NCBI GenBank assembly: GCA_000002435.2
Contig: CM018792.1
Strand: one strand, 5' to 3'
Length of the DNA stretch: 64,000 nt
Source of the DNA: Giardia intestinalis
Lineage: Eukaryota
Part shown: positions 40,225 to 64,000 of the stretch, piece after piece
Layout: the number at the start of each line of letters is the position of its first letter
Position numbering within the stretch: the first letter of the stretch is position 1
Notes under the pieces: generated by a model
Told to the model about the DNA's origin: nothing
The model's database searches: none
Seen by the model: only the letters and a program-made list of their open reading frames with translations
Position numbers and translations under genes: made by a program

Positions 40225-40312
40225 GCGCTCGCGCGTGGAGCCGGGAGGCAGGCGTGTCCGTATGCCTAACCAATTTGAATTCATTTCCGGGTCTGAAAAG
40301 ACAAGGCCCGCG

Positions 40313-41452
40313 ATGTCCCACCGCAAGTTCTCGTGCTGCCGCAAGGGCAACCTCGGCTACCTCCCCCGCAAGCGCTGCACGCGCGGCCGCGGGCGCTGCA
40401 AGACCTTCCCACCAGACGTCCAGGGCGCGCCCATCCACCTCACGGCCTTCCTCGGCTACAAGGCCGGCTGCACGCACGTCATGCGCTTCATCGACCACCG
40501 CGGCTCGAACCTCCACAACCGCCAGGCCATCGACCAGGCGACAATCATCGACGCCCCGCCAATGATCTGCACGGCCATCATCGGGTACGCCAAGACCCCG
40601 AAGGGCCTCCGCGCCGTGACGACCGTCTGGGCCGCCCACATCGCCGAGCCCGCCATGCGTCGCTTCTACCGCAACTACTTCCACGCGGAGAAGACGGCCT
40701 TCTCGACCTACATGAAGAAGGCCGCCGACGGCACATACATCAAGGAGCAGCTTGGGCGCCTTAAGCAGCACGCTGACGTCATCCGCATTGTCGCCCACAC
40801 CCAGCCTGCCCTGACGCCCCTGAAGCAAAAGAAGGCCGACATCATGGAAATCCAGGTCAACGGCGGAGCGAACGTGGCCGAGAAGGTCGACTATGCGTAC
40901 GCCCTCATGGAGAAGCCGATCTCGATCAAGGACGTCTTCAGCGTGGGAGCACAGATCGACACCATCTCCATCACGCGCGGCCGTGGGTTCGAAGGCGTCG
41001 TCACCCGCTGGGGCGTCACCCGTCTTCCGCGTAAGACCCGCCGCGGAAACCGCAAAGTTGCCTGCATCGGTGCCTGGCACCCGGCCAACGTCCAGTATAC
41101 TGTCGCCCGCGCCGGTCAGATGGGTTACTTCCACCGCACGGACACCAATAAGCAGGTCTTTATGATTGACACAGCGGAGAACCCCAGGTGCTGCACAACG
41201 GAGTTCGATCTGACAGACAAGAGCATCAACCCGGTCGGCGGCTTTGTCAACTACGGCCGCGTCCAGGGAGACTTCATCATGATCAAGGGCACGTGCCCAG
41301 GACCCAAGCGCCGCCCGGTTGTCATGCGCAATGCCCTCCTCCCTCACCGCAACTGTCCTCCGGTCCAGCTTCAGTGGATCAGCACGGCCTCCAAGTTCGG
41401 TCACGGTATCTTCGAGACCGTTGAGGAGCGCAGGCAGTTCTACGCCAAGTAG
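40313..41452 (+). CDS. RPL3: 60S ribosomal protein L3 (uL3)
   Basis: MSHRKFSCCRKGNLGYLPRKRC...HLTAFLGYKAGCTHV...VACIGAWHPANVQYTVARAGQMGYFHRTDTNK...SKFGHGIFETVEERRQFY matches eukaryotic L3 end to end. The true ATG is 40313. The track start 40235 is a GTG. Confidence 0.93.
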   Translation: MSHRKFSCCRKGNLGYLPRKRCTRGRGRCKTFPPDVQGAPIHLTAFLGYKAGCTHVMRFIDHRGSNLHNRQAIDQATIIDAPPMICTAIIGYAKTPKGLRAVTTVWAAHIAEPAMRRFYRNYFHAEKTAFSTYMKKAADGTYIKEQLGRLKQHADVIRIVAHTQPALTPLKQKKADIMEIQVNGGANVAEKVDYAYALMEKPISIKDVFSVGAQIDTISITRGRGFEGVVTRWGVTRLPRKTRRGNRKVACIGAWHPANVQYTVARAGQMGYFHRTDTNKQVFMIDTAENPRCCTTEFDLTDKSINPVGGFVNYGRVQGDFIMIKGTCPGPKRRPVVMRNALLPHRNCPPVQLQWISTASKFGHGIFETVEERRQFYAK

Positions 41453-41503
41453 GCCGACCGTGTGCCAAGTGAACCAGGCGCTCCTCCGTTTACTTTGCAA
41501 TGT

Positions 41504-46445: not shown

Positions 46446-47723
46446 ATGAACGCGCCAAAAAAGACCCGAAAGCCGTCTATCACCAAAGCTGAAAGCACTC
46501 CTCCTTCTCTCCCTCAGCAGGGGCTTCTTTATACAAACTATCCAGATCTAGGAAAGAATACAAAGGTATACTACTCGACACAGCTAGTGGAATCTCCCGA
46601 ACGTCATAGTTTAGTAGAGCTGAACAAACGGCGAGCAGCTAAGGAATCTCACGCGCTCACTTTGCGGAAGCGGTCTATGACTCACTTGTTTGGAATAACC
46701 GCATCTAGAAGGAACACCCTCCAGGCCTTTGATGAGGTCAATTCCTACACACATTTGAAGCAGATCAACCAGGCCCAGGCAATACGGCTGTCCTTAGCGG
46801 GCAAAAATCGAACAGCCGATAGCGAATATGCGGCCTTGTCGGCAGTCTCACAAACGAGGCTGCTGTATACGCATCCCAAGGCAGAGGCTATTCTCGGCAT
46901 GTCGCAGGTGGAACATGAGCGCTATAATGCACTTCGAGCAGGTGCAGCAATCCCACAAGGGGCACATGGAGAAACTGTTACCGGAGCCACTCTCATGACT
47001 GAGCTGCCACCCGAGACATGGGGAGGCACAGAAGATGTCAGTGGTGAGGCTGATTGTAAGCAGGATCTTCTTAGCGAGCAAGAGCAGCAGCTTCTTAGCA
47101 CTAGGGCAACGGTCTGCGATACTGATGTGACAATGAATGCAGAACTGAGCGTCAAAGAAGCTTATTCTGATTACCTTACTATCGAGGACCTTGCCTTTAG
47201 TCATGCTGGGAATGAGGCTAGGAAAAGGCCCAGAGCCGAACAATTGGCTAACCTGGAGAGGCAACGGCTGATAGCAAAGATAGAGTCTGCGTGTATCCCA
47301 CCAAATGTCAAAATAACATCATCCATAGGAGTCCGTGAGATGGCACTTAAGCCTATACAATCCATACCCTCTACGCTTGTCACATCAAGTCAGGTTCTAG
47401 ACCGGTCAACCCGATCGTTGAAAAACGTTCAGTCAACAACGGCATATGTTAACAAGCTGGTAAGGTCTTGTACAGAGACAACCTACCTGCCTGCGTCAGG
47501 GGGTAGGGAGGACAGGATTCGGCATTCTATCCCATCTTCCCATAGGTTTGTTACGACAGAGGCCTCGACAATGAAAGACCTCATTCACTTTATTCCAGAT
47601 AATTCTCAAGACATGCGAAAACGGAGCAGAGAATCGATTATAGAGCTTTCAGGATCGGGAGGTCCTCGTGTTGCAGATGTGCTTGATGTTCTAGTTTGGT
47701 CTAGGAGATCAACTGCCACATAG
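46446..47723 (+). CDS. hypothetical protein (425 aa)
   Basis: ATG at 46446 directly behind CCATTTAAATAATTACTAG, a strong AT initiator. No domain recognised. Confidence 0.45.
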   Translation: MNAPKKTRKPSITKAESTPPSLPQQGLLYTNYPDLGKNTKVYYSTQLVESPERHSLVELNKRRAAKESHALTLRKRSMTHLFGITASRRNTLQAFDEVNSYTHLKQINQAQAIRLSLAGKNRTADSEYAALSAVSQTRLLYTHPKAEAILGMSQVEHERYNALRAGAAIPQGAHGETVTGATLMTELPPETWGGTEDVSGEADCKQDLLSEQEQQLLSTRATVCDTDVTMNAELSVKEAYSDYLTIEDLAFSHAGNEARKRPRAEQLANLERQRLIAKIESACIPPNVKITSSIGVREMALKPIQSIPSTLVTSSQVLDRSTRSLKNVQSTTAYVNKLVRSCTETTYLPASGGREDRIRHSIPSSHRFVTTEASTMKDLIHFIPDNSQDMRKRSRESIIELSGSGGPRVADVLDVLVWSRRSTAT

Positions 47724-47765: not shown

Positions 47766-48959
47766 TCACTCACCGGGGGGAAGAAGCATGGTCCTTAGGC
47801 GTGAGTCCTGCACTTCTTGTATCTGTGCACGCTTATCCTCCAGCTCAGAATCACTAAGGCTCATATCGCTTGGCTCTTCATTCAGTCCGTCACTCTCTCT
47901 ATACGCAATGCGCCTTATAAAATGATCCCAACTGGCAAACACGACCATATCCAACTCCTTGTCTCCAGACGCTTGTGTTACCACCTGTGGAACCAGGTTG
48001 ACTGCACATATTCCGTCGAAGAACCGTCTAGATGACCTTGCTTCCTGTAGTTTGCCATGGCAAGTCAAAAAGACCAATCTTTTGCTTCGTAAGCCGATAA
48101 CTATGTGCCCAGTCTTCGAAACAATCTCTTCGTCGCTTGGAAATGCCCAGTCCAAGGCCCAATCCTCTAGCTCGATGCTATACAAATGTGTTTCTTGCTG
48201 ATTCTTCAAGGACCCAGCTAGTTCTGTCTTTTCGCCTGTTTCAGAGTAAAGCTTCTCTAAGAACATGGCCAGTGGAAGCTCAACGCCTCGGATGTGCTTG
48301 TCTGCGCAGGCTGTCCACAGGATTTCTCCTGCAAACTTCACTAGCAGTACGTTGGTAGGATGCGGTTGGAGGCGGTAGATGACTTCCATTGTGTTTCCAT
48401 CAATCACAACAGTTGCGCCATCAGAGCAGGCAGCTGCAAGAAGGATGTGACCATCTCCTGATAGAGGAAGAAGACACAGAGAGTTGACAGCCCTCTGAGA
48501 GATAGATATTGTCGCTGACGTGATATACGGACTTTCCTGAATGGGTGTATTAGGCTCGAATGCCTGCTTATTCCTAGAGATGTCCCACCTGGAGACATAA
48601 CCGTCGGCAGATCCGCTGAAGATATAGTGCTCGTCGTGTGAAAAGATCATGCATTTGACAAAGTCGTTGTGTGAGGTCAATCCGGGACCAGGAGCAAAGA
48701 TCGCGTTGTCAACGATGGTTCTGTCCACTATGGAAAAGCACAGGATCCGTTTGTCCCAGCTTCCCGTGTACATGTGCCGTTTATTTTGCGAAAGAAGAAT
48801 GCAGACTACAGGCCCGGTATGGCCCTCGTAAGAGCGTACCAGTCTGCCTGTTTTCCAGTTAAAGCAGCGCACCTGATGTGTTGCCAGACCGATAAATGTA
48901 TATGGGCCATTAGTGACCGCCGAAACGATCTTGCTCTTGCAGTCTATTTGGTGAAGCAT
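47766..48959 (-). CDS. WD40-repeat protein (397 aa)
   Basis: GHTGPVVCI, TGSWDKRILCF and SGSADGYVSRWD are WD repeat signatures. ATG at 48957-48959. It shares an AT-rich spacer (GGATTTTAAAACTTCTTTAAATAAGAG) with the divergent 49034 gene. Confidence 0.7.
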   Translation of the reverse strand: MLHQIDCKSKIVSAVTNGPYTFIGLATHQVRCFNWKTGRLVRSYEGHTGPVVCILLSQNKRHMYTGSWDKRILCFSIVDRTIVDNAIFAPGPGLTSHNDFVKCMIFSHDEHYIFSGSADGYVSRWDISRNKQAFEPNTPIQESPYITSATISISQRAVNSLCLLPLSGDGHILLAAACSDGATVVIDGNTMEVIYRLQPHPTNVLLVKFAGEILWTACADKHIRGVELPLAMFLEKLYSETGEKTELAGSLKNQQETHLYSIELEDWALDWAFPSDEEIVSKTGHIVIGLRSKRLVFLTCHGKLQEARSSRRFFDGICAVNLVPQVVTQASGDKELDMVVFASWDHFIRRIAYRESDGLNEEPSDMSLSDSELEDKRAQIQEVQDSRLRTMLLPPGE

Positions 48960-49033: not shown

Positions 49034-50524
49034 ATGCATACGGGGCCTATTAGTGCCAATGCAGCAACCCGCAATAGCCATAGAAGGCTGCTCATACCGC
49101 TTCCTTCTAACTCTTTTTTACCTCCGCTGCTCTCTCAAAATTGTCTCCAAGCTTTTGTTGCTATGCGCCACGTCAATATAACACCTATTTATAGCGTTTC
49201 TCCCTGCAGTGATAAGGTGCTTCAGGTTTGTACTGAGCCGTGCGTTTCATGCACACTACGTCACGTAATCGACGAGCTTTCGTTTTTGGAGAGTGAATGT
49301 GGCATTAGGCTGGCAGCATCCATTTTTGTCGGGGCCTTGGAAGCATTGGCTTATTTAGCTTGTCTCAGTAGAGTGTGGGGACTAGAGTTAGACATTCAGA
49401 ATATAAATTGGCTGGATATGTTATGCGTAGATGACAGAGGGCAGTGGAAAATAATTGCCCATAAGATGAGTTCTTATCGGGGTGGTCACAAGCCATGCAA
49501 TAGCATATCAGGCACACATACGCCTTCTAATAACTTTCGTACTTGTGATGAAATAGCCCACATGTGTTTACCCGGTATGCAGTCACTGGGACTTATTATA
49601 TTGAATTTACTAGTTGCTGGGTCTCGCATTGACCTAGAGGAAAGTATAACGCTACGAAGTTGGAATAAACTTCAAACGGATATTGCATGCTCCCGAAACA
49701 AACACGAGATTCCTGACCTAAGGCTTTTCATTGATACGCTCAGTATCATATGGGACGAAAACTTCAACCAGCCTGTACATCCATATCACATACTCACGCG
49801 CCTTCTGCCCATTCTTCAGACATACATGAAAGACGAATCTACTAAAAGCGGAGCAGTGGACCCTGAACACAGAAGAAAATCAAAATACTCTCCGCTTATG
49901 CTCGGTGTCTTATCCAAAGACTATGAGCTCGTGCAAAGACACATTTCGTATGCAGGTTGTAGAACAGCATCAGGAATGACAGCCCTTATGATGGCGGCAA
50001 GAGACAATTTTGTAGAAGCCGTACAGATTCTACTTCCCCATGAAGCACACTATAAAACGTTTTTAGGGACTAGATTTGAGAGTAGAACAGCACTGATGTT
50101 CGCAACCCACAACCGCAACTACGACTCCATGCATATACTCTATGAGCAAGAAGCTGGAATCGCTAATGTCTATGGGGCCACATCCTTAATGCGTGCAGCT
50201 CAAAATGGAGATTGTGTAGCAGTTGAGATACTCATGAAGCGCGAAGCAGGAATGGCTAACTACACAGGGTTTACGGCACTGATGAATGGAGCCACAAAAG
50301 GCTTCACCAAAATTGTAAGTTTGCTGCTCCCATTTGAAGCAGGAGGAGTTACAAATGATAAGCACGAATGGGGAAAGGGCCATTCTGCCCTTTCGCTGGC
50401 GGCAATGAATGCTAACAAAGAGGTAGTTTTGTTGTTATATGAAGTTGAGCGACAGTTACTTAAGTCTCGGTGCATATTAACATCCGGAAAAACAGTGATA
50501 GAGGAGCTTATTGAAGGAAAGTAG
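49034..50524 (+). CDS. ankyrin-repeat protein, Giardia Protein 21.1 type (496 aa)
   Basis: At least five tandem ANK repeats in the C-terminal half: G(M/A/F)TALM.AA..N....V..LL. The ~280 aa N-terminal domain lacks kinase catalytic motifs. Confidence 0.75.
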   Translation: MHTGPISANAATRNSHRRLLIPLPSNSFLPPLLSQNCLQAFVAMRHVNITPIYSVSPCSDKVLQVCTEPCVSCTLRHVIDELSFLESECGIRLAASIFVGALEALAYLACLSRVWGLELDIQNINWLDMLCVDDRGQWKIIAHKMSSYRGGHKPCNSISGTHTPSNNFRTCDEIAHMCLPGMQSLGLIILNLLVAGSRIDLEESITLRSWNKLQTDIACSRNKHEIPDLRLFIDTLSIIWDENFNQPVHPYHILTRLLPILQTYMKDESTKSGAVDPEHRRKSKYSPLMLGVLSKDYELVQRHISYAGCRTASGMTALMMAARDNFVEAVQILLPHEAHYKTFLGTRFESRTALMFATHNRNYDSMHILYEQEAGIANVYGATSLMRAAQNGDCVAVEILMKREAGMANYTGFTALMNGATKGFTKIVSLLLPFEAGGVTNDKHEWGKGHSALSLAAMNANKEVVLLLYEVERQLLKSRCILTSGKTVIEELIEGK

Positions 50525-53500
50525 TATAGTTATCTAGTTATGCCAGTTGATTACATGTGTCATACATAACGTGGTAGCCAATAGCTTAATATAATGCTAT
50601 CAATACATATGGTTATCATATTAAGACGCAGGACCTAAATGCTACAGGCGGCCTCAGAAAAAGCTCTCTGAGGGAACAAGAAGTGAGGCGACTAATGCAC
50701 CGAGGATGCTGCAGGCCTCTGTCCACGGAATGCAAACCCATTACTATGCAATTCGCTACCACAGGCTTCTGTTTGCGGTGACACAACTGCTGGGTGTCGC
50801 CACGCTCTGGAAGCTAGTGTACGGGCTCACGTTGTAAGGCCGGCGGACCGGAGGATGCAGGGGCCACAGGGTAGCGACTGACCATCATGGTTCTATAGGC
50901 TCTGCGGCTAGTAGCACAGGGGCAGGGATGCTGCATCCCGGTGATTGGCTCAGGGCCGCACTATCCAATGGGCCGACGACCCTCATGTTGTTTCAATCTG
51001 ACGTGGCCTCCACTGCTGCTCCCGTACGAGTTGGAGAAGGGGCTGGCCCCATCGAATGCGGCAGAGAACAACAGGCGCCCGGCCTTCGGGCGAGGAAGCT
51101 GGGTGATCTCGTCCAGGCGAAGCCGACTCCTCACCGTCCTCTGGGTCCTGCCTCTTCTACCGCCCTGGCACAACATAGCTCGGTAGGGGGCGGCGTGTCT
51201 GCGCTACAGGACGCGTCGTCAAGAAAGAGTGGGCCTGGAGAGACCCGACGGCCACCGCTGGGATAGGCCTCAGAAGCCCTTGGCTGCAGGATACGCTACT
51301 GCCAGGGTCAGTGCAGGCTATGGCTTTGAGGAAGCGCAGGACTGATGGGTGCTATCAGGAAACACCTGGCACGTTCTCGTGTAGAGGGGGACTCAGGCTT
51401 GCGGGCTCGGATGTCTGCCATTTCCGTGTCAAGTTGATGTGACCAGATCAGGGGCAGTGGTCGAGGGATCGATCCACAGGCTCCAGAACAATATGTCGAA
51501 GAACAAGCAATCAGACTGGCGGTGGCTTCGGCAGTGTCGTGGCCCGGGCCTCTTCAGCCGCGCTTGATGGAACCCGACGTTGCGCCAGGCGACGGGACAG
51601 GGCACCGGTCGTCCTTAGAGCATGCAGGAGGCGAGGCTTGTGAGCCCATGGGCGTCTGGCCTGCCAGCTGAGGCCACATCGGTGACGAGGCCCAGGGTGA
51701 TGCAGCGTGGATGACCCTGTGCGCGTGTGCTCTGTGATGACGGGCCTGACGGTGAGTGCAGCAAGGTTATAGGCACGGGCTCTGTCTGGGCCAGGGCCCC
51801 AGAGCTCTTTCTGTCGCAGGGAAGAATAGGGCAGCGCGGTGCAAGGAAGGCATCTAGCAGGATGCTGGGAAACTGACCCGATGTGGCAAATCACGGGCGC
51901 TGCCAAACACGGCGTCTCTTCTCTTAGACAGAAGACAGGCAGAGTGGATGATTGCGGAGGCTGCAGTGTCCGTGGTAGATCGCGGCATCGCAAGGTGGCT
52001 GAGTCTGTGCCGGTGTGTCTGTCCGGGCTCTAAGTGCGCTCTGAGGATCACCTGCTGATGGGCTGGAAGGCCCGAGAAGTGATGCGCTGCCCTTGTCATC
52101 GCGGGCAGCGCCCTGTGGCACGCACTCGAGCCAGCGCCTCCTGGTGGCCAGAAGCAGAGCAGAGGCAGACGGCCGGTCGTGCATCCGTCCAGGCGGCTCA
52201 CTGCGTGTAGAGCGAAGAAGACCACCTGCGCCGCTCGGGTTATTGCTCAGCATCAAGTGCGGATGGAAGGCTGGGCCCGGCAACCAGGGCGCCGACCTGC
52301 ACGCTCCCGTCAGCCATCCCAGGCCGGTCAGAAGCCAGGCTCGACAGGCAGTGCAAATGCCAGGGAAGCCAGCGTGACCATCGGGCCCGCGTTTGAATGC
52401 TAAAAAACTTGGGCAGCGATGGCGACTGTCGTCTTCCTGGGAGGGCGCCTCTTCGCACAGGGTCAGCCGTCCTGGCCCTGCATACTGGGTGCGCGGCTCG
52501 AAGGCGCGCTGTGCTAGTTGTGGACCTGTCAGGCGCTGCAGCCTACGAATAGCACGGACGGATGCAACGGAGTGTCCGCGCAGTGCACTGTCATTGTCCC
52601 AGAGAGCTGTTGTTCTAACCATGCGCCCTACACCGGCTCGGCATACCCCTGCTGCTTCCGCTGCTGGTCTGTCTGCCACTTGTTTATTATAGCGGGGGGC
52701 GCATACGCTTATAGTGTCGTCTAGGCACTGTAGTGGTCTTCTCGGACGGTGCATGTATATTCACATGATGGCCGATGGGTGGAGCGGCTGCCTGATCTTA
52801 GAGCTCTCATTGCAACAAGGCGGGGCGTCGGCTGTCTACACGCCTCTAAGCGAGCCCGCGACCTCTGTGCAGATGCCTGCTCGCCGCGCTCCATAGTGAC
52901 GGCTGTACACCCAGAAGGGGTCGCAGAATCCTCCGCTGTCCTTCGAGGTGGACCACGGCTTGTGCACAGGCTAGCGACGGGGCCTGCGCACCAGTTGCTA
53001 TGGGTCCAGTCTGCCGGGCACCTGGATTACAGTGCACGTCAAGACTGCACACTCGTTTGCATGCTCGCTGCTCGTGTTGGACAGAACTGCGAGGGGTCTG
53101 TCTCTGGCCATCCTCGCCTTAGTGCTTGGCCCTTGATGACACGCCTCAGCAGAGGATGGTGTCTTCTAAGTACTCGGAAGACTATCCGTGCCTGGCGGTT
53201 CCTAGAGAGTCGGTTCGCACAGAAAGCGTAGATGTGCCCGGCGGGCTGGCGGGGTAGGGCTGGGGCTACAGAGACTAGCCATTAGCCCGGATTACAGCAG
53301 GGACACCTGTAGTGCCTCCTCGGCTCCTAAGCGTGGAAAGGCCGTAGAACTTGCAGATGAGTTGGAGGCTGGTTTTTGATTTTATGCATTTGCAGCAGAG
53401 CAGAGTTTACTGAAGGTCCACTTATTCTAAATTCGAGGAGCCTCATCTCCTCCTCACACACGGTGAGATGATCGATTGTAGAGGTGTATTGTGCAAACCG

Positions 53501-55204
53501 GTGGCAGTCAGCGTATATCCAGACGGATACTGCCTGCGTCCTCTTGTGGCAGACCACCACCAGGGCTCCAATCTGCACATCTGTTCTGGCATCTGTCGGG
53601 CAATCATCACCTTTGGTCGAATGATTGCTGTACGTCACACAGCTTGAGCCATCCGTCGACCAGGTGGTGCCATAAGCTCTTGTCCCCTACTTGTCCACCC
53701 GATGCAGACTCTGAGCGCCGCCAGTTGCACTCACGTCTGCACTACTCATCTGGATGCCCCCACTCTTCAAGAGCACATGCCCGCAGCCGATGCTCCGTAT
53801 TACAAGAGGAGCCAGCCGGGCCACTGCGCTGTGCATAGCTCTCCTGGGCGTATTGTTATGCGCGCCCAGCCTTTCCATCTATAAGTCACCACGCAGCTCT
53901 TTCCCACCGTCTCGCGTCCACATGTGCGCCAGCGCCGCCGAGCTTTCGTGGTCTCGAGGGGCCCCTGATGCATGGAGCGCTTGCGCAAAGTCCTTCCACC
54001 ACTGACCCAAGCCGACCCCTCGCAAGATCCTTAGCGGAGTTGCGTCCGAGATGTGTGCCTGCGTTGCTGTCCAGGTGCATGTGCCGGCCCTGGTGCTTCC
54101 CACAAGCTTGCGAGCATCGAGCTGGCCGCTACCGAACCGTATCAGAAGTCAGCACCAGGATGTAGTCCCATCAGTCAGGCTCTGCAGGCTCCCAGAGCTA
54201 CGCATCAAAAGGCCGTTCTTCTTTGGTTGTGCAGCGTGGGGAGATGCACCGAACTACCACACCCTCTCCGTGTGGCGTGGTTTACGACGGGGGACGGGGT
54301 CCCTGTGCTCATGTCTATCTGCCCAGGACGAGTCGCAGCCCGGGTTGACAATGACAAGCGAGCATCGCCCGGCTCCTTGTCAGCGGGTGGGAGATCCCGC
54401 CACCCTAGTACCCACAGCAACGGGTGCCGATCACTGGCAGAGGGACACGACACCCAGGCTCCCGTTCCTTCCACTGATGGTAGCCCACTATGAAGAGCCC
54501 TTTGTCGCCTGCACCAACAACCTCAGGCACTGTGGGTCAGAGCGCCTCCATAGTGGACAGCGGTAGCACTATGATGATCTGGGGTGACAGGAGTCCCGGT
54601 CTATCAACTCAGGAGACAGCACGCTTTGGGCAATGCTTCCCTCCTGTCCAGATCTGGGAGGACTGGCTGCCTTCTGAGCCCACCTGGCACCTTGTCAGGT
54701 GATGGAGTGTCTTAAAGTATTCATTACAAAAGATCAGAAATAGCGCCATGCATTCCCAATAGACCAGAACGTCTCCTAGGCTACTCTATGCTGATTCGCA
54801 CCTTTCATGGACCCTAGCGATCACTGTAATCTTCTCTCGGGATCCCGCAAGGGACTGTCCTTGAGTGCGATTCCCCCACGACAGCCGGGAGTCGCAGACA
54901 TAATCCAAAGGGATGAGAGTACTACAGAGGCTGAGAGGAGAGCGCCGATGCACAGGGGTCCGCAGAGACCCGGTTCGTACAGGGAAGGCGTGGAGGCTGG
55001 CTCTCCAGGGATGTAGAGCCACCAGGAAAGGAGCTGGCAGTGGGGCTTAGGCGCAGCAGAGGCACCCGATCCGTCCTCTGATTGGCCGCGAGGCAGTAGG
55101 CGCATGGGGCGGCATCACCGCTTGTTTTTGGATTTTCTGCTTCCCTGCGCGTTGTGCAGGGGTCCGCAGTGGGCTGAGTATCACAGGCTACACATAGTAG
55201 ATGC
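50525..55204. other. 4.7-kb ORF-poor, moderately GC-rich block without recognisable coding potential
   Basis: The longest ORF is 276 aa with random-looking composition. Both strands are littered with stops. No rRNA 5-prime signature and no TAGGG telomere repeats were found. Confidence 0.5.
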
Positions 55205-55219
55205 GTTTACTACCTAAGT
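55205..55219 (-). promoter_or_regulatory. VSP extended polyadenylation element ACTTAGGTAGTAAAC
   Basis: It lies on the coding strand 2 nt after the VSP TAG stop. It matches the conserved VSP 3-prime element ACTYAGRTAGTRAAY exactly. Confidence 0.8.
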
Positions 55220-55221
55220 AC

Positions 55222-57465
55222 CTACGCCTTCCCTCTGCAGATGAACCACCAGCAGAGGAAGCCGACGAGGCCGGCCACAATGACAACCGCCGCGACAGAG
55301 ATCCCTGCTATGGCACCGGTAGAAAGGCCGCTCTTATTCGTGCTTCCCCCGGTACTTTCACCGTTCATGAGGTAGCAGAGAACGGAGCCACTACCAGCCG
55401 ATGGAGGGGCGCAGCTAGCGCAGTTGGCGACGCCGGTGATGGATCCCCCGTCGCTCTTGTCGCATGCTATACACTTTTCTTTGGACGGGTAGTACCCTGC
55501 AGCGCACACCGTGCACTTGGTGGCGTCGTTCGCATTGCACTCGGAGCACTCAGTGGCGCAGGGAACACACTTCTTAGTGTTACCGCCAGTCTTAGCATAT
55601 CCAGCCTTACACGTGTCGCACTGGTCCTGGCTGGTGCACGTCTTACATCCGGCCGAGCAAGTGATGAGCGCGCCGTTATTCAGCTTGTACCCGTCGGCCG
55701 GAGTCTGACAGGCATCGCTCGCTTCTGCTGCGGCTAAGCAGACGCTCTTTCCGGGGAACTTGGTCGTCTCATAGCAGCCCCCGTTCATACGAAGAAGCCC
55801 GTTGGCGCATTTGTCACAGACACCAGTCCCTTTGGTAGTGCACGTAATAGCCTTTCCGGCCGCCGCCGAGCAGACTCCGTTCTGTGGAAACTGGCCGGCT
55901 TCCTTGCACTTGGAGCAGTAGGCCGTGCCATCGACCGTCAGCTCGCACTTCTCGCAGTTGTTAGCATTTGGCTCGCATCCTGGTTTGCACGTCCCCGTGT
56001 TGCCCTCTCCTTCGTAGCTGAGGGCCTTCTTAGGCTCACAGCTCGTACACCCGTTGGAGTTCCCGTTCGCGCACGTCTTGCACGAGGTATCGCACTTGGC
56101 ACAGGCGGTTTCTTTCTTGTAGTATCCGTCCTTGCAGGTCTCGCACTGTCCTTGCCCGTTGCACAGGAGGCAGTTCTCGACCTCGCACTTCTTGCAGGCC
56201 TTCTTGCCCCCCTCGTTGGTGCCCGCGTAGTAGCCTCCCAGATCTCCGCACGCATCGATGCACTGGCCCGTGGGCGTGAGGGCCTTAGTGCCCTCGCACT
56301 CTGTGCACACCTCCTTGCTTGTCTTCGGCTCACTGCACGTCTTGCAGCCGGGGGTGTTGCACGGCGCCGCAGGGGGGTCGGACTTCTTCATGCACCCGGT
56401 GCCGGCCTCCTCGGGAACGTAGCCCTCAACGCACTCACAAACGCCAGAGGTCTTTTCCTCGTTGGAGTTCAAGGGGCAGCTTTCAACGCACCCCTTCTTG
56501 TTTGGCTGGACCTTCTTCTGGTTTTCGCACGTCTTGCAGGCGACTGCTCCATCGGCGCCCTTCTCGCACGTCGCGCATCCATTGGAGGTCCCCTCGGCGC
56601 ACGCCTTGCACGTCTTCGGCTCAGTGTCGTCGGCGTAGTGGGTGCTTTGATTCTTGCACTCAGTTTCGGTGACGCACGTGCCAGTGTCGCTGCCATTATC
56701 CTTCTTCAGGTACGGCTTGTCGTCCTTACAGGAGGTGCACTTCGCAGCCTCGGTCTTACAGGTCTTGCAACCAGGATCACACGCCTCACAGGTTTTGGTG
56801 CCGCCATTTTTCACGAAGAACCCTTCGGTGCCGGTGCACTCTTCTTCTGTCACGCAGGAGGTGGCTGAATCTGTAGCCGTCTTCAGATACTTACCTTCTT
56901 GGCACGCAGTGCATGTGGCAGCCTTAGTGCCACTAGCTGATAGTTGCTCTGGTTTCTCACAGGTAGCGCACCCAGCCACCCCCGTGTATATCTTATCGCC
57001 AGTAAGTGTTACGCCCGTCGCGTCTCCGCACGAAACAACAGAGTCGTGGGCGTCGTCTGTATCTGCCGGCGGGACAAAGTACTTATTTCCAGCGACAGCC
57101 TCTGTGCACTTACCAGCATCTGCCGCTTGACACATGGCATTGCCAGGGGGTTTTGCTCGTTCATAGCACCCGCCCTTGTACATGAAGGAGTTGCCGTTAC
57201 ATCCTGTACATTTTCCGCCTGCGTGTGTCTTACATACTGCTGTATCAGACGACACATCTGTGCATACCCCGTTGACAGGAGCGCGATCAGCGGGATCTGC
57301 CTTGCATTGAGAGCAATACAATTTACCATCAATCAGAACGTTGCATGCCTCATCGGCACAATTGGTAGTTTGATCTGCACAGGTAGCCGTTCCAGCTTTT
57401 TCTGCTATCTGTGCCGTCCATACAAACTGAAGGATTACCCCCGCGAGAACAAATCTACAGAACAT
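55222..57465 (-). CDS. vsp: variant-specific surface protein (VSP), complete, 747 aa
   Basis: Signal peptide MFCRFVLAGVILQFVWTA. About 11% Cys with many CxxC motifs, and a GGCY motif. C-terminal TM plus invariant CRGKA tail, followed by the VSP poly(A) element. Confidence 0.93.
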   Translation of the reverse strand: MFCRFVLAGVILQFVWTAQIAEKAGTATCADQTTNCADEACNVLIDGKLYCSQCKADPADRAPVNGVCTDVSSDTAVCKTHAGGKCTGCNGNSFMYKGGCYERAKPPGNAMCQAADAGKCTEAVAGNKYFVPPADTDDAHDSVVSCGDATGVTLTGDKIYTGVAGCATCEKPEQLSASGTKAATCTACQEGKYLKTATDSATSCVTEEECTGTEGFFVKNGGTKTCEACDPGCKTCKTEAAKCTSCKDDKPYLKKDNGSDTGTCVTETECKNQSTHYADDTEPKTCKACAEGTSNGCATCEKGADGAVACKTCENQKKVQPNKKGCVESCPLNSNEEKTSGVCECVEGYVPEEAGTGCMKKSDPPAAPCNTPGCKTCSEPKTSKEVCTECEGTKALTPTGQCIDACGDLGGYYAGTNEGGKKACKKCEVENCLLCNGQGQCETCKDGYYKKETACAKCDTSCKTCANGNSNGCTSCEPKKALSYEGEGNTGTCKPGCEPNANNCEKCELTVDGTAYCSKCKEAGQFPQNGVCSAAAGKAITCTTKGTGVCDKCANGLLRMNGGCYETTKFPGKSVCLAAAEASDACQTPADGYKLNNGALITCSAGCKTCTSQDQCDTCKAGYAKTGGNTKKCVPCATECSECNANDATKCTVCAAGYYPSKEKCIACDKSDGGSITGVANCASCAPPSAGSGSVLCYLMNGESTGGSTNKSGLSTGAIAGISVAAVVIVAGLVGFLCWWFICRGKA

Positions 57466-59240
57466 TGGGGTCAGCCGGTTACTAGGAGACGGACAGAACT
57501 ATTAATACATTATTATCAATCTGTGTGATACACAGTAGAGTGTAATACTGGGCACACTTCTGAACGACGTCACGTGAGTGATGAGAACGCCATCCTGTCA
57601 TTCGCGGAGGGCCTCTCATTCTCCCTCGTTATAGACCGTGGCAACAGAGACACAACAGGCAGCTCGTCCGTCTCCGTAAGCATTCCAGGGAGTCCTGCCT
57701 GTCTGTACGAGGAGGTTTACTCTTCCACCAAGGACGGTTTCCGGCTGCTTCCGGTACATCAGTCGTGCCTGGACCGCTAGTCTGTTGACCGCTCGGGATT
57801 TCAGATATGAAGGCTTGGATGTGTCCAGGTTCTGGTGGCGGTGATGGAGTATTCCACGTGGGTTTTTGCAGGGGCGGGTCTTTCTGAAGCATACCGCAGG
57901 CAGATCTGCGATACACTGACCCACTACCATTGACGGGTGCTCTTGCGCTAGTCTTGTATCTGGTTCGCTGATGATCCCCCCTAGACGACATCTTCCGCCA
58001 TCTCTCGGAGAAGCGCGGTCTCAGACCAACCTCCAGTGGAACAACTCATCAGTTCCGCCTGTGTGGCGGGCTTCAGGCTTACCTGCAGGCGTAATCCAGA
58101 AATTTCACGAGTGGGTCTCGTCATTCCTGGCCAGTTCAGAGACGAGGGTTGGTCGTTAATGATATAATAGGGATCTCCCTTCACTTGTATACCAGGAGTC
58201 TTTTGCGTCTCTCAGTCGCTCCGCAGGGGTGTGCTCAGGCTGAGTATGCACGCCGGTCCTTTCGGGGTTCAGGCCTTCTCGTGGACTCTCTGCTCTATCA
58301 GTGGCGCCTCTCCTTGGTCTGCCGCCTTGGTGGGTGTAACTCTGGTCACTGTCCTTTTTTAGATGCTCCCGTCTGTCAGGGGCCGTCATCGGGCTCTCCG
58401 CTGGCTGGGCCTCTCAGTGTCCGGGCAGCTGTGGCTCGAGTCAGGGCTCCCACGGTCGCGGTCACTTGGGTCTCAGTGGGTCAGCTGGTGGGTGAGGCGG
58501 GGTTGGTGGGTGAGGCTGGAGGGCTCTGGTGGGGGCTGAGGCGGGGGGTGTTGTATGTGCCTCTGGATCCGGTGGGCCAGTGGGGTGGTGGGTGATCCCC
58601 TCTCTGTTTGCCAAGGTGGTTGCGTCTGATCCCCAGCCTTCGTTGCACTCCTGAGACAGAGGCACCGACGATCGTGTCGTGTCCCCTGACTGAGCGCCTC
58701 CCTTGGCCCCTGCATGTCTCGGGCAGTACTGCTTCTCTGTTTGACTAGTACGTGAGTGTTGAGGCAGGCCATCGCAGCCTCTCCTGTTGCTCGCTGGTGC
58801 TCTGTGCGGGTCTGCTGAGCCCCTGGCATGCCCTGTCCAGTGCCTCGACGGTAGTTCACCTCGGGCCAGCAGGGGTGTGGATGAGCCTGTGGATGGGATG
58901 GGGTGCTCTCAGGCCTCTAGTGTGATGGCCCTCGAAGACTGGCATGGTGGGGACCGGGTGGGCGGTGTTGTATGTGTCCCTGGTCCGGTGGGCCATGTCG
59001 GGTGATCGCAGCTGTGGTGACTGGAGGCTGTCTATCTGTGACCCATCCCTCTGTGGACTCGGGAGTGCCCTCCGCCCAGGCAACAGTGGTGCTGCTGGGG
59101 CCCTCGCCTGCGGGCGCTGTCCAAAATCTCGCGAGTAAATTCCCGCTCAATTTTTGGCGATGTCCGGAGACGAGGGTTGGTCACGGGCCGTAACGATAAT
59201 CACAGCGGTTGTAAGGAGGAGCTATCTGCGTTCCTCGGCT
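57195..59240. repeat. left arm of perfect inverted duplication (mirror coordinate = 121195 - x); contains VSP 5-prime 270 bp + 1.77 kb upstream
   Basis: Every ORF of 60 aa or more in this arm has a letter-identical twin on the opposite strand of 61955-64000. Examples are 58149..58595(+) with 62600..63046(-), and 58972..59193(+) with 62002..62223(-). Direct base check: 57466-57640 equals the reverse complement of 63555-63729. Identity ends at 59240/61955. The outer limit is set by the window end. Confidence 0.9.
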
Positions 59241-59930
59241 GTTCCGTGGGCGTGCGCACAGCTGGACCTGAAGCGTCGAAGAGCCCGCGAGGACCCGATC
59301 CGCATTATGAATGCAAGATCGTACCTCCGGGGCCCCCAGAGAGCAATCGTGAGTCTCTACTCGGGGGACCACTCCGAAGACGTTTACTCTCTCAGCAGGA
59401 CACACGTGCTGGCTCTGTGGCCAACCGTGTGAGAGCGCCAAGCAACTAACCGAGCACCTGAGAGAAGCAAACGATGACAGACACAGAGTGCTGGGCGACG
59501 ACAAGTTGATCATTCCGGCCCAGTACCGAACCGGACAGCTGCCATGCTCATCCACCAAGGTGCACGCATGATCGCGAGCATCGAGCAGGCTGGGACTGGG
59601 GTCGCGCTCCCCGCTATCAAGGGCCTGAACGCCCTGGTGGGAAGCCCCAGAAGACTCAAGCAACACAGTAGAGCAGGCCCAGAGTAAGGCAGACCCAGAC
59701 CCCGAGAAGGCGAGACGCCGGATAGCAAACAGGGTGAACAACGCGCTGAGCTTCGGGGCAGTTGCTAAGGCTCTCCGCGCCCTTGATGAGACACCCATGG
59801 TAGACATCAAGTCGGAGAAGGCCGACCGCCCTCAGCGCGCTACACCTGTGCGTCCTCCCGAAGGCTACGTTGGCCTTGACTACCCTCCATCGATGAACTC
59901 GACGGGCTGGAGCCGGCAACCGAGGAGGAA

Positions 59931-60676
59931 ATGAGGAAGGCCCTGTTGGGACTCTCAACAAGAAGGCCTCGGGCCGGTCCAGCTCAAGGCGATGAAGCAG
60001 AGCGACAGCTTCGTGAAGTACCTCACGCAGGCATACAACGAGCTGACCACCCACCCCGAGGCGATGCCAGAGGTGATGGCCATGCTCGAGTTCCGGGCGA
60101 TCCTCATCCCGAAGGAGTCCGACGGATACCGCCCGATCGCGATAGGCGAGACGGTGACAAACATCTTCCACCGCGTCCTGCTGAAGGGCTGATCAGGCAT
60201 GCCAACTACCTCTTGTGCGAACAGATCGCCTTCATGCAGAACGCATACGCGGTAGGTGTGAGGAGGGCCCACGAGCTCATCAGCAGGCGGGGATGCACGC
60301 CGTCTCCCTCGACATAACGAACGCCCTCAACTCGCTCCCGAGGGCAGAGGTCGCCAGAGCCCTGAACGAGGCGGGCGTCCCGAAGGTCATGGTCGACCAC
60401 ATCGGGGACTTCCTCGACCTGAGGCACAGCCGGGACGTGAAGTGCGAGGTCTGCGGCGTCCCCCAGGGCGACCCGCTCAGCATGCTCCTCTTCTGCATGG
60501 CCATCGAGCGCCTCCTGAGACGCCTCAAGGAGAGAGGCATCCCCTTCCTTGCCTATGCGGACGACATCGTGGCGTTCCACGACGAGGCCTACCCGGCAGG
60601 TGTGATAACACAGCTGGCCATGGGCCTGACGATCAGGAGCGACAATGCAAGTCCACCATGGCGGGCGAGGAGGTGA
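59931..60676 (+). pseudogene. reverse transcriptase domain remnant (frameshifted)
   Basis: RT motifs 0, 1, 2, 3, A, B-prime/C (YADD) are spread over three reading frames (ORFs 59931.., 59992..60192, 60215..60676). Confidence 0.8.
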
Positions 60677-61219
60677 CCTTCCTCAACCACCCGGTGTCCC
60701 CCACTCCAGCAAGCCTTACCCCAAAGGCCATCGCAGGTGCTGAGACTGCCCTGAGGAAGATCGAGAACGCCCCAATAACCACCCACCAGAAGCTCATCCT
60801 GCTGTCACTCTGTGTGATCCCGATGGTGAACTACGCCCCCCTGGTCGAGATAACATCGGACAAGGCGGACTACGAGGAGCTGACAGACGTCGCACAAGGC
60901 TTCAGCAAGCTAGCCAACAGAAGCTGCGATCGCCTGGTCGACTTCCTGGCGTACCCGAAGGAGAAGGGCGGCCCGGGCCTGCTCATGCTGGGACTCTACC
61001 ACGACGAGCTGCGGAGGGCATGGACTCCCTGGACGTCAACAAGGGGGCCAGAGACCCGGTGGAGCTGTCGGTGGAAGGCCAGGCACTGCAAGGGAAGGGG
61101 GCCTACTTCAACCGCCTCCTCACGCGCACACACCAGCTTTCGGACAGAGCGGCGGCGTGCTGACCGAGGAGGAAAGGGCCCTGAAGCAGAGAGATGGCTC
61201 GATCATGGGGCAGACAAGA

Positions 61220-61689
61220 GGCACCTGCCCGGGCTGCCACACGGCAAGGACCCTCGACCGCGACATGATCGTCACGTGCCTGTACCTCCGCGTCTCGGGG
61301 AAGCTCAACCGGAGCTGGAAGTCAAGACCCACAGCCACCTCAGCGACCAGAACCAGAAGCCCGACATCTGGCTCGTCGACAAGTGCAAGGCAGTGGACGT
61401 GCGTGTCATCCAGCCCCGCCAGATGGATGCCTACTACAACGAGAAGGCCAAGAAGTACAGGGACGGGACGCTCCCGATCATCTACGGGACAGATGGATCC
61501 CTCCACCCCAAGTCCAAGGGGCACCTCGAGGAGCTCCACGTGGACCTCTGTCCGGGCTGCCTTCGCCATCGCCTACATGGCTGCAGAGGCGAACGAGCAC
61601 CTGACGGAGCTGATCAGACGCGACCGGGCCGAAAGCCTGGTCACCCAGAGCGACCGTCTCCTGTCATCCTACTTCTGACAACCGAATGA
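61220..61689 (+). pseudogene. Cys-His motif + restriction-enzyme-like (PD-D/ExK) endonuclease remnant
   Basis: CPGCH...C is in one frame. KPDIWLVDKCKAVDVRVIQ...EKAKKY is in another. The ORF ends at 61689 and is followed by a ~265 bp tail with no poly(A) tract. Confidence 0.6.
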
Positions 61690-61954
61690 ATCCATCCCCG
61701 GGACCCGACGACAACGACCGAGAAGGGGCAAAGACTGGACACACAGCCGAGTTGAATCCCAACCAGAAGAGAAAGCCCGCTAGCTGCTGCTGATCTGTAT
61801 GGACAGTATTGAGAATGACAACAAAGACCAGAGCTTCACTCACCGTGAAGGGAGAACAAGGAGAGGCGCTCTAACAGGCCAGCGAACCTGCAGGACGGCT
61901 TGATCTCTGAAAGAACCGATGTGCACATCCAGTCTGAGTGTACTCCTGTAGAAT

Positions 61955-64000
61955 AGCCGAGGAACGCAGATAGCTCCTCCTTACAACCGCTGTGATTATC
62001 GTTACGGCCCGTGACCAACCCTCGTCTCCGGACATCGCCAAAAATTGAGCGGGAATTTACTCGCGAGATTTTGGACAGCGCCCGCAGGCGAGGGCCCCAG
62101 CAGCACCACTGTTGCCTGGGCGGAGGGCACTCCCGAGTCCACAGAGGGATGGGTCACAGATAGACAGCCTCCAGTCACCACAGCTGCGATCACCCGACAT
62201 GGCCCACCGGACCAGGGACACATACAACACCGCCCACCCGGTCCCCACCATGCCAGTCTTCGAGGGCCATCACACTAGAGGCCTGAGAGCACCCCATCCC
62301 ATCCACAGGCTCATCCACACCCCTGCTGGCCCGAGGTGAACTACCGTCGAGGCACTGGACAGGGCATGCCAGGGGCTCAGCAGACCCGCACAGAGCACCA
62401 GCGAGCAACAGGAGAGGCTGCGATGGCCTGCCTCAACACTCACGTACTAGTCAAACAGAGAAGCAGTACTGCCCGAGACATGCAGGGGCCAAGGGAGGCG
62501 CTCAGTCAGGGGACACGACACGATCGTCGGTGCCTCTGTCTCAGGAGTGCAACGAAGGCTGGGGATCAGACGCAACCACCTTGGCAAACAGAGAGGGGAT
62601 CACCCACCACCCCACTGGCCCACCGGATCCAGAGGCACATACAACACCCCCCGCCTCAGCCCCCACCAGAGCCCTCCAGCCTCACCCACCAACCCCGCCT
62701 CACCCACCAGCTGACCCACTGAGACCCAAGTGACCGCGACCGTGGGAGCCCTGACTCGAGCCACAGCTGCCCGGACACTGAGAGGCCCAGCCAGCGGAGA
62801 GCCCGATGACGGCCCCTGACAGACGGGAGCATCTAAAAAAGGACAGTGACCAGAGTTACACCCACCAAGGCGGCAGACCAAGGAGAGGCGCCACTGATAG
62901 AGCAGAGAGTCCACGAGAAGGCCTGAACCCCGAAAGGACCGGCGTGCATACTCAGCCTGAGCACACCCCTGCGGAGCGACTGAGAGACGCAAAAGACTCC
63001 TGGTATACAAGTGAAGGGAGATCCCTATTATATCATTAACGACCAACCCTCGTCTCTGAACTGGCCAGGAATGACGAGACCCACTCGTGAAATTTCTGGA
63101 TTACGCCTGCAGGTAAGCCTGAAGCCCGCCACACAGGCGGAACTGATGAGTTGTTCCACTGGAGGTTGGTCTGAGACCGCGCTTCTCCGAGAGATGGCGG
63201 AAGATGTCGTCTAGGGGGGATCATCAGCGAACCAGATACAAGACTAGCGCAAGAGCACCCGTCAATGGTAGTGGGTCAGTGTATCGCAGATCTGCCTGCG
63301 GTATGCTTCAGAAAGACCCGCCCCTGCAAAAACCCACGTGGAATACTCCATCACCGCCACCAGAACCTGGACACATCCAAGCCTTCATATCTGAAATCCC
63401 GAGCGGTCAACAGACTAGCGGTCCAGGCACGACTGATGTACCGGAAGCAGCCGGAAACCGTCCTTGGTGGAAGAGTAAACCTCCTCGTACAGACAGGCAG
63501 GACTCCCTGGAATGCTTACGGAGACGGACGAGCTGCCTGTTGTGTCTCTGTTGCCACGGTCTATAACGAGGGAGAATGAGAGGCCCTCCGCGAATGACAG
63601 GATGGCGTTCTCATCACTCACGTGACGTCGTTCAGAAGTGTGCCCAGTATTACACTCTACTGTGTATCACACAGATTGATAATAATGTATTAATAGTTCT
63701 GTCCGTCTCCTAGTAACCGGCTGACCCCAATGTTCTGTAGATTTGTTCTCGCGGGGGTAATCCTTCAGTTTGTATGGACGGCACAGATAGCAGAAAAAGC
63801 TGGAACGGCTACCTGTGCAGATCAAACTACCAATTGTGCCGATGAGGCATGCAACGTTCTGATTGATGGTAAATTGTATTGCTCTCAATGCAAGGCAGAT
63901 CCCGCTGATCGCGCTCCTGTCAACGGGGTATGCACAGATGTGTCGTCTGATACAGCAGTATGTAAGACACACGCAGGCGGAAAATGTACAGGATGTAACG
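61955..64000. repeat. right arm of perfect inverted duplication (reverse complement of 57195-59240)
   Basis: See the left arm entry. It includes the second VSP start. Confidence 0.9.
63730..64000 (+). CDS. vsp: second VSP copy, 5-prime partial (first 90 codons identical to VSP at 55222..57465)
   Basis: ATG at 63730. Translation MFCRFVLAGVILQFVWTAQIAEKAGTATCADQTTNCADEACNVLIDGKLYCSQCK... is identical to the first VSP. It runs off the window. Confidence 0.85.
   Translation, partial: MFCRFVLAGVILQFVWTAQIAEKAGTATCADQTTNCADEACNVLIDGKLYCSQCKADPADRAPVNGVCTDVSSDTAVCKTHAGGKCTGCN

Follow-up and report, generated by a model that had tools for sequence, protein, structure and literature searches.

A VSP gene palindrome of Giardia intestinalis centred on a dead GilD/Genie 2-type retrotransposon that carries terminal inverted repeats

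A long, perfect palindrome on Giardia intestinalis contig CM018792.1 (assembly GCA_000002435.2) was found to be centred on a dead non-LTR retrotransposon copy of the GilD/Genie 2 type. The unique centre meets the arms (59240/61955) where the element's own terminal inverted repeats have their inner edge. All positions refer to the window, that is, the whole 64,000 nt stretch of DNA that was analysed. We consider it probable that the VSP-bearing arms grew outward from these repeats and have since been kept identical by gene conversion. Antigenic variation in this major human parasite draws on a repertoire of VSP genes, and the mode by which this repertoire is duplicated is of real interest. The advance made here is modest, given that the locus itself had already been tabulated; what is added is that the VSP mirror repeat has, as its innermost portion, the inverted ends of the element itself.

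A base-by-base check showed complete complementarity between 57195-59240 and 61955-64000, a length of 2046 bp with 0 mismatches, and this comparison upheld the preliminary description of a palindrome whose unique centre is exactly 59241-61954. As the right arm stops at the window end, the true arms are longer than 2046 bp. A repeat search returned 2067 nt, its extension running through a few mismatches. Beyond the element repeats, each arm comprises at least 1.9 kb here and at least 4 kb by the published annotation, and holds a VSP gene of 747 aa together with its upstream region. No tandem repeats were detected in 50-64 kb, and no further copies of the element or the arms were present elsewhere within the 64-kb window. 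The interval 50.5-55.2 kb contained no convincing ORFs, and housekeeping genes occupied the remaining window.

Three housekeeping ORFs of the window were identical to WB proteins KAE8304495-7, which are encoded on a contig of 2,761,001 bp, and the locus is the published head-to-head VSP pair GL50803_00d112801/112801, the second gene of which is predicted to run beyond the window end. The mirror image of position 57465 is 63730, which predicts a VSP-VSP spacing of 57466-63729, or 6264 bp. Xu et al. 2020 give the same spacing in their Table 2, where the row for d112801/112801 reads chr 4, <- ->, 747 aa, 6264 bp and psiRT (PMC7000408). The locus was therefore already known, and it is itself a member of the identical inverted VSP pairs of WB collected in that table, with no difference from them. 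A related remark has also been made elsewhere (bioRxiv 10.1101/2022.03.07.483299). Among the 19 identical WB pairs, an RT remnant accompanies four of seven that are arranged head-to-head (d112801/112801, 50229/d50229, 111933/111936 and 119706/119707) and none of 12 that are arranged tail-to-tail (PMC7000408). The spacing of d112801/112801 is the widest of the four psiRT pairs (3242, 3301, 3846 and 6264 bp) because approximately 1.6 kb per arm separates the VSP start from the element, an older relic of the element 3' end included. Coordinates of all features are collected in Table 1.

Table 1. Features of the palindrome and its retrotransposon centre, in window coordinates
Feature	Position	Strand	Basis and remarks
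VSP gene, 747 aa, C-terminal CRGKA, head toward element	55222..57465	-	ORF list, VSP homologues, Table 2 of PMC7000408; member of pair GL50803_00d112801 / 00112801
Left perfect arm, extent visible in window	57195..59240		Base-by-base check; continues leftward through VSP gene if published pair identical
Whole dead GilD/Genie 2-type non-LTR copy, ~3024 bp including terminal inverted repeats	59086..62109	+	blastn against four other copies
5' terminal inverted repeat (innermost 155 bp of left arm)	59086..59240	+	Alignment of both ends of all copies
Unique palindrome centre (element body minus terminal repeats)	59241..61954	+	2714 bp; first arm mismatch at 59241
Candidate C2H2-like zinc finger CWLCGQPC...H...H (CWLCGQPCESAKQLTEHLREANDDRH)	59407..59484	+	Pfam zf-C2H2 E 0.005, below cut-off
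Reverse transcriptase fingers, palm and thumb, frameshift-broken	59965..61200	+	RVT_1; tblastn of P0006 and P0002; best PDB matches R2Bm, R2Tg
CCHC remnant (CPGCH...)	61226..61265	+	Compared with P0002 and four DNA copies; second half deleted
Restriction-like endonuclease core KPDIW...VDV...KAKKY and C-terminal ORF end	61357..61678	+	Aligned to R2Bm residues 933-1033
3' terminal inverted repeat (innermost 155 bp of right arm)	61955..62109	+	Same outer truncation as 5' repeat
Right perfect arm, ends at window end	61955..64000		Mirrored VSP start codon predicted at 63730
Older, strongly decayed copy of element 3' UTR and terminal repeat, in right arm	62723..63113	+	Mirror image 58082-58472 in left arm

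The plus-strand order first read from the sequence, namely a zinc finger, an RT, a Cys-His motif and a PD-(D/E)xK endonuclease, was recovered by RVT_1 and R2 profile matches, with the finger falling below its cut-off. For the RT, the Pfam RVT_1 match reached 68 bits (cut-off 29.6; E 1e-18), and its YADD box lies at 60554-60565. The finger scored 17.6 bits against a zf-C2H2 gathering cut-off of 25.2; it aligned with a finger of proteins P0012 and P0013, and a weak alignment to the finger region of R2Bm was also obtained. In the endonuclease core, KPDIW at 61357 is followed by VDV and by KAKKY near 61458. When the family profile was compared with PDB structures it matched R2Bm and R2Tg (E ~2e-25), with the RT as well as the CCHC-endonuclease region aligned, so the identification of the element is not due to chance, and RT and endonuclease can be aligned to non-LTR RTs as the preliminary description had supposed. 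Over R2Bm residues 933-1033 the profile matched the C..C..H..C, RH, KPDI, VDV and K..KY motifs. Distances to the junctions, first put at ~160 bp for the finger on the left and ~265 bp for the ORF end on the right, measured 166 bp (finger start 59407) and 276 bp (stop codon 61676-61678).

The centre shares its domain order of candidate zinc finger, RT, CCHC and PD-(D/E)xK endonuclease with R2 elements (R2Bm, R2Tg; PDB 8gh6, 9dou, 9nl2). In contrast to R2, it lies outside rDNA, shows no evident single target site and has terminal inverted repeats. The family was only ~28-30 % identical to P0012, its nearest intact non-Giardia-like relative, and at ~3 kb the element is shorter than GilM (5,474 bp). 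We assign the centre, by family descriptions, as a dead RLE-type, R2-like non-LTR retrotransposon copy of the GilD/Genie 2 type. GilD of Arkhipova and Morrison 2001 and Genie 2 of Burke, Malik and Eickbush 2002 are reportedly the same dead family of Giardia lamblia WB, and comparison by description revealed no difference between it and the family in the window. The inverted repeats of Genie 2 are reportedly 'up to 172 bp' long (Burke et al. 2002), compared with 155 bp in the window and ~209 bp in a solo copy described below. To our knowledge, the founding GilD/Genie 2 papers do not spell out that the repeats run on into a perfect VSP palindrome whose arms reach 4 kb or more. Like GilD/Genie 2, the window copy resides in WB, is dead, carries microhomology-flanked deletions, and sits beside a VSP gene in a gene-poor, non-telomeric region. 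Its dead state, microhomology deletions and VSP neighbourhood agree with the account of Gladyshev and Arkhipova 2010, who describe GilD as broken by microhomology-mediated deletions and as a neighbour of VSP genes where genes are sparse (PMC2861651).

Decay of the window copy is extensive. Measured against a five-copy majority consensus, its coding part contains at least 15 frameshifting indels that are private to it; the earlier tally of at least four frameshifts and stops had correctly indicated a dead copy but was an undercount. In the consensus itself, 561 codons spanning RT to endonuclease become open again. A 45-bp in-frame deletion with 10 bp of flanking microhomology has cost the CCHC motif its second half, and a 16-bp deletion is associated with 9 bp of microhomology. 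All five element copies examined are dead.

The extent of the element was established by blastn against four other copies, namely L001 (915-4023), L002 (9193-12295), L008 (8577-11641) and L009 (1-2870). BLAST identity to the window copy was 86-89 % over ~3.1 kb and gap-free pairwise identity to it 91-93 %, while identity across all five copies was 91-95 %. Because these four copies align to window positions 59086/59089-62106/62109, the element reaches ~155 bp into each arm, and the preliminary description was mistaken in confining it to the unique centre and in having it fill the spacer from one edge to the other. L008 is a solo copy situated between NOT2-like and EamA-like genes, in flanks unrelated to those of other copies, and lacks both VSP genes and long arms. 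It nevertheless carries terminal inverted repeats of ~209 bp that are 94 % identical (8544-8754 / 11674-11462, 93.9 %), so the repeats belong to the element family. They are also present in L001 and are degenerate in L002. The window repeats lack an outer ~30 bp (GTTTACTCCACCCACCGGTTGCTTCCG) that is found in L008 and L001, and both sides are equally truncated. In every copy, the left and right element ends cease to resemble each other exactly where the perfect arms end.

These observations divide the two readings first proposed for the arms. The suggestion that the element family includes the arms applies to the innermost ~155 bp and fails for the outer sequence of at least 1.9 kb with its VSP gene; likewise, the inner arm sequence does occur elsewhere at the termini of the element, but the outer VSP-bearing arm is missing from the solo copy. 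The alternative suggestion, an inverted duplication around a pre-existing insertion, suits the outer arms, which are a locus-level inverted duplication, and does not suit the innermost ~155 bp, which are the element's own.

The first reading of the sequence had noted neither a poly(A) tail nor a target-site duplication, and this was confirmed: the element 3' end (62109) lacks poly(A), and no target-site duplication lies at the boundaries of L008, the one copy where this could be judged, since the mirrored flanks in the window make any such duplication undetectable there. Among the five copies examined a single specific target site was not evident, the flanks of L008 being unlike those of the window, L001 and L002. 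An Rfam scan covering 55000-64000, with E values of up to 1 allowed, gave no match, so that neither an HDV-like ribozyme nor an R2 RNA element was detected at the element's 5' end. A seemingly conserved core of the repeat, with a candidate promoter and an ATG at 59160, was rejected, as invariant runs of comparable length occur inside the element and the ATG frame is closed in the consensus.

The right arm contains an older relic of the element 3' end, which aligned to 61702-62088 with 62.6 % identity over 404 bp under lenient scoring. Default blastn detected it at 70 % over 114 nt (E 3e-7), and it was also detected by L001, L002 and L009. A weak collinear protein match to the CCHC-endonuclease region was present at 62474-62596 (E 0.07). 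L001, from isolate DHA2, is likewise a palindrome centred on the same element, with arms ~97 % identical. An inner arm cassette of ~1 kb is common to L001 and the window (79 % identity at window 58081-58662), and window positions 58162-58394 match L002 at 72 %; sequence outside 58081 is not shared. VSP orientation is reversed between the two palindromes, with 3' ends facing the element in L001 and 5' ends facing it in the window. Related loci thus combine the same element core with different VSP orientations.

The arms do not diverge at all in the window (0/2046 bp), compared with ~6 % between the L008 repeats, ~3 % between the L001 arms and 5-9 % between paralogous copies. This lack of divergence fits both very recent duplication and ongoing conversion. 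Both window repeats share the same ~30 bp truncation, so the copying of one side from the other postdates it. Palindromes in which a short inverted repeat underlies arms subject to conversion include the Tetrahymena rDNA palindrome, yeast and mammalian palindromic amplification, primate Y palindromes and plastid IR expansion. The window has the same geometry as these, comprising a unique spacer, a pre-existing short inverted repeat and long perfect arms, and its arms are likewise far more alike than paralogous copies, although the process at this locus is deduced from sequence. We infer that the repeats of a dead GilD/Genie 2 copy played a seeding role. They would supply the homology for intrachromosomal fold-back, replication template switching or outward gene conversion, whereby an inverted copy of one flank could be placed on the opposite side and the VSP gene duplicated. 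Arm-to-arm gene conversion would then hold the arms identical as far as homology extends, which is to the inner repeat edge.

The most serious competitor, which we nonetheless regard as unlikely, is that a general pair-forming mechanism produced the VSP inverted duplication and that the element is a bystander, the junction coinciding with its repeats since conversion runs to the end of homology. Several observations favour it. An RT remnant is absent from 15 of 19 identical WB pairs (12 tail-to-tail and three head-to-head), which counts against seeding by the element and means that VSP palindromes can form without it. The tail-to-tail pairs are narrowly spaced at 2.5-2.8 kb, suggesting another, element-independent cassette, and G. 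muris has identical VSP pairs with very few retrotransposon sequences (PMC7641422). Against this, the junction falls exactly at the inner repeat edge, and L001, in another isolate, is also an element-centred palindrome even though its VSP tails point inward. Moreover, the GilD/Genie 2 family has only about ten copies, and given this low number the presence of an RT remnant in four of seven head-to-head pairs is a strong enrichment, in support of seeding by the element.

Far less probable is that the whole palindrome, long arms and centre together, moves or duplicates as a single composite, with long arms belonging to the element family. Homology beyond the 155-210 bp repeats is indeed common to the window, L001 (79 %) and L002 (72 %), and upstream regions are similar among head-to-head pairs (bioRxiv 10.1101/2022.03.07.483299). 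However, solo L008 has the repeats without longer arm sequence, the VSP genes of the window and L001 are oppositely oriented, nothing is shared outside 58081, and the shared inner-arm segment is better read as the older relic of the element 3' end. Least credible is a long-read assembly artefact. The classic identical inverted VSP pair, vsp1267, was reportedly shown experimentally in 1991. The lack of a single mismatch in 2 kb or more might raise suspicion, and such duplicates were once questioned as assembly artefacts in GL2.0 (bioRxiv 10.1101/2022.03.07.483299), but the 2.7-kb unique centre is bounded by the family's own repeats, unlike an adapter-type fold-back, the independent DHA2 assembly (L001) shows the same palindrome type with imperfect arms, and Xu et al. 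2020, who list 19 pairs of this kind, validated their assembly by optical mapping (PMC7000408).

Seeding by the element's repeats at this locus, the reading we prefer, could be extended to layered outward growth, from ~0.2 kb in the solo copy through the ~1 kb cassette of the window and L001 to at least 4 kb here, with GilD/Genie 2 as a recurrent driver of VSP expansion. We hold this extension to be doubtful. Such growth would duplicate whichever VSP gene end adjoins the element, and in its favour L001 shares the inner cassette despite its reversed VSP orientation. If all pairs had palindromes that begin inside the element's own repeats, repeat-seeded palindrome growth would provide a concrete mechanism for the published idea that TE relics drove VSP duplication. 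As pure speculation, a transcript running from arm through centre to arm might form a hairpin of ~1.8 kb with VSP upstream sequence, or a longer one with VSP coding sequence, and such a hairpin could conceivably enter the Dicer/RNAi pathway, which has been implicated in VSP switching.

The repeats also contain a variable patch, of which the window type is found in the left repeat of L001 and another type in the right repeats of L001 and L002. In these two comparators the pattern hints that the left arm may have been the donor.

Base-by-base comparison of the palindrome arms showed perfect complementarity between 57195-59240 and 61955-64000 (2046 bp, 0 mismatches), with pairing first failing at position 59241. 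This places the unique centre at 59241-61954, in exact agreement with a preliminary description made from the sequence alone. A repeat search of the window returned an arm of 2067 nt rather than 2046 bp because it tolerated a few mismatches. Because the window ends within the right arm, the true arms are longer than those visible.

The features tabulated below come from translating the centre in three frames and from a stitched conceptual protein. A family profile was built from alignment A1, comprising the window translation and six database relatives. Among solved relatives, the R2 proteins R2Bm and R2Tg matched this profile best (E ~2e-25), with alignments spanning the reverse transcriptase (RT) and the C-terminal CCHC-endonuclease region alike. 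The order of domains proposed in the preliminary description is therefore real, its zinc finger being a putative one. By these domain features the element groups with, and works like, RLE-type R2-like non-LTR elements, but two features typical of R2 proper are missing: insertion at a single target site, and TPRT marks that can be recognised at the ends.

Coordinates of coding features in the palindrome centre and of the adjoining surface-antigen (VSP) gene
Feature	Position	Strand	Detail	Source
C2H2-like finger	start 59407	+	166 bp from junction	
Reverse transcriptase	YADD at 60554	+		Pfam RVT_1, E 1e-18
CCHC remnant	near 61226	+		translation
Endonuclease core	KPDIW at 61357	+	KPDIW, then VDV, then KAKKY	translation
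Stop codon of element frame	61678	+		translation
VSP gene	55222-57465	-	747 aa, C-terminal CRGKA	ORF list

Close relatives of the element protein were found in Giardia sequences only, all of them pieces of broken ORFs. Four further DNA copies were compared with the window copy: L001 and L002, which both adjoin VSP sequences, and L008, which lies between NOT2-like and EamA-like genes, all from isolate DHA2, and L009 from a metagenome scaffold. Pairwise identity among the five copies was 91-95 %, and their majority consensus reopened 561 codons from RT through endonuclease, relative to which the window copy carries at least 15 private frameshifting indels. Deletions of 45 and 16 bp in the window copy are edged by 10 and 9 bp of microhomology, respectively. 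In their summary of the founding paper, Gladyshev and Arkhipova 2010 (PMC2861651) describe GilD as adjoining VSP genes in gene-poor regions and undergoing microhomology-mediated deletions. Based on its decay, microhomology deletions, gene-poor VSP setting and size (~3.0-3.1 kb, compared with 5,474 bp for GilM), the window copy was assigned to GilD, also called Genie 2; it fits the published description of that family in every feature compared.

Alignments of the four other copies to the window all start at ~59086-59089 and end at ~62106-62109, passing the palindrome junction by 155 bp on either side. The solo copy L008 displays a 213 bp inverted repeat (8544-8754 / 11674-11462, 93.9 %), opening on either side with GTTTACTCCACCC. 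The left and right flanks of L008 are unrelated, do not resemble the outer arms of the window and yielded no target-site duplication. For Genie 2 copies, the abstract of Burke et al. 2002 reportedly gives inverted repeats of at most 172 bp. An end alignment revealed that left and right ends diverge at one common column in every copy, corresponding to 59240/61955 in the window; judged from this alignment, the palindrome 'junction' is the inner boundary of the terminal repeat carried by this family. The preliminary description had the element exactly filling the unique centre. The element does sit there, but all four copies extend into both arms, and the junctions do not bound it, as the terminal repeats also form the inner arms.

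Outside the 155 bp repeat, each arm comprises ~1.6 kb of VSP upstream sequence followed by a VSP gene. On both sides the window repeat is without the outer ~30 bp seen in L008 and L001, and this identical truncation indicates that one side was copied from the other after truncation. The window arms differ at 0 of 2046 bp; the two L008 repeats are ~6 % diverged, the L001 arms ~3 % apart outside a diverged inner patch (outer arms ~97 % identical), and paralogous element copies 5-9 % apart. L001 (DHA2 contig AHGT01000170) is itself a palindrome centred on the same element, with arms 163-1069 / 4773-3869 reaching the contig end and a 34 bp patch of the repeat (1008-1041) strongly diverged between sides. 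Here VSP 3' ends (1-270 and 4666-4759; tail-to-tail) face the element, whereas 5' ends do so in the window. Window 58081-58662 has a homologue in the inner arm of L001 (79 %). Much of this segment (58082-58472, mirrored at 62723-63113), common to L001, L002 and L009, resembles the element 3' end at 61702-62088 (62.6 % over 404 bp; default blastn, 70 % over 114 nt, E 3e-7), and 62474-62596 just upstream gave a weak collinear protein match to the CCHC-endonuclease region (E 0.07). The shared inner-arm segment thus looks like a more ancient copy of the element 3' UTR and terminal repeat, now heavily decayed. Taken with the equal truncation, arm uniformity and L001 palindrome, this relic suggests three layers: a family-wide repeat of ~0.2 kb, an older arm of ~1 kb present at several loci, and a locus-specific extension including the VSP gene.

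No counterpart of window 58662-59089 is present in L001, whose homologous arm segment lies only 35 bp from the element; this suggests that the window lineage gained an insertion or a partial duplication. Each arm also contains a 62 bp direct repeat (58527-58587 and 58945-59004, 84 % identical, 418 bp apart; mirrored at 62191-62250 / 62608-62668).

A distant relative was present in P15 (assemblage E; contig ACVC01000769, 3197-7331) as an RT-endonuclease remnant without the 5' part, sharing ~35-40 % amino-acid identity with the window family. It lies directly upstream of a VSP gene head and is flanked by a 70 nt inverted repeat (5202-5271 / 7262-7331, 80 %) that does not resemble the window repeat in sequence. 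This hints that terminal repeats and VSP association both predate the GilD/Genie 2 family.

ORFs at 46446-47723, 47766-48959 and 49034-50524 were identical to G. intestinalis WB clone C6 proteins KAE8304495-7 / GL50803 tags. The VSP start codon at 57465 mirrors to 63730, so that the two predicted genes would stand 6264 bp apart. In Table 2 of Xu et al. 2020 (PMC7000408), d112801 / 112801 appear on chromosome 4, oriented '<- ->', with 747 aa, a distance of 6264 bp, and 'psiRT', an RT remnant, in the gap. The window locus is this published pair, so the arrangement flagged in the preliminary description is already in the literature, and head-to-head VSP pairs often contain retrotransposon remnants (2022 preprint, 10.1101/2022.03.07.483299). 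Together with the GilD/Genie 2 features, this makes the finding already known; added here are the start of the palindrome within the element's own repeats and the layered arms common to another isolate. The exact 747 aa sequence was not found in the protein collection, where neighbouring WB proteins are present; its closest match was 'VSP AS10' (Q8I8V3, 88 %). The stretch 50500-55200, which separates the VSP gene from the last housekeeping gene, is gene-poor and GC-rich (55-65 %), with low-complexity ORFs only and no convincing ORF. The left arm may extend into this region.

From the locus geometry and comparison of few loci, the most likely origin is repeat-seeded duplication followed by conversion. 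The element's inverted repeats would supply homology for fold-back, replication template switch or outward-spreading conversion; one flank would be copied to the other side, duplicating the VSP gene, and arm-to-arm conversion would prevent the arms from diverging as far as their homology extends. The chief alternative has VSP pairs forming independently of the element, a bystander whose junction only marks where conversion must stop; consistent with this, 15 of the 19 WB pairs are without an RT remnant (Xu et al. 2020 Table 2, PMC7000408), and G. muris has identical pairs and almost no retrotransposons (PMC7641422). Two observations weaken the reading of long arms and centre as a single composite unit: L008 occurs as a solo copy, and L001 has its VSP genes in the opposite orientation. 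The palindrome is unlikely to be an assembly artefact, as its 2.7 kb centre is structured, DHA2 provides an independent palindrome, and Xu et al. 2020 (PMC7000408) report validation by optical maps.

In WB, the identical VSP pairs arranged tail-to-tail, 12 in all, lie 2526-2813 bp apart (Xu et al. 2020 Table 2, PMC7000408), a narrow range suggesting that a second conserved spacer cassette, different from the RT remnant, occupies the centres of their palindromes. Elsewhere in the window, two ORFs, each >400 aa, cover nearly the same stretch on opposite strands: 40196-41500 (-; 434 aa, TTG start) and 40235-41452 (+; 405 aa, GTG start). At the position equivalent to 40196-41500, short-read assemblies call a 402 aa gene.
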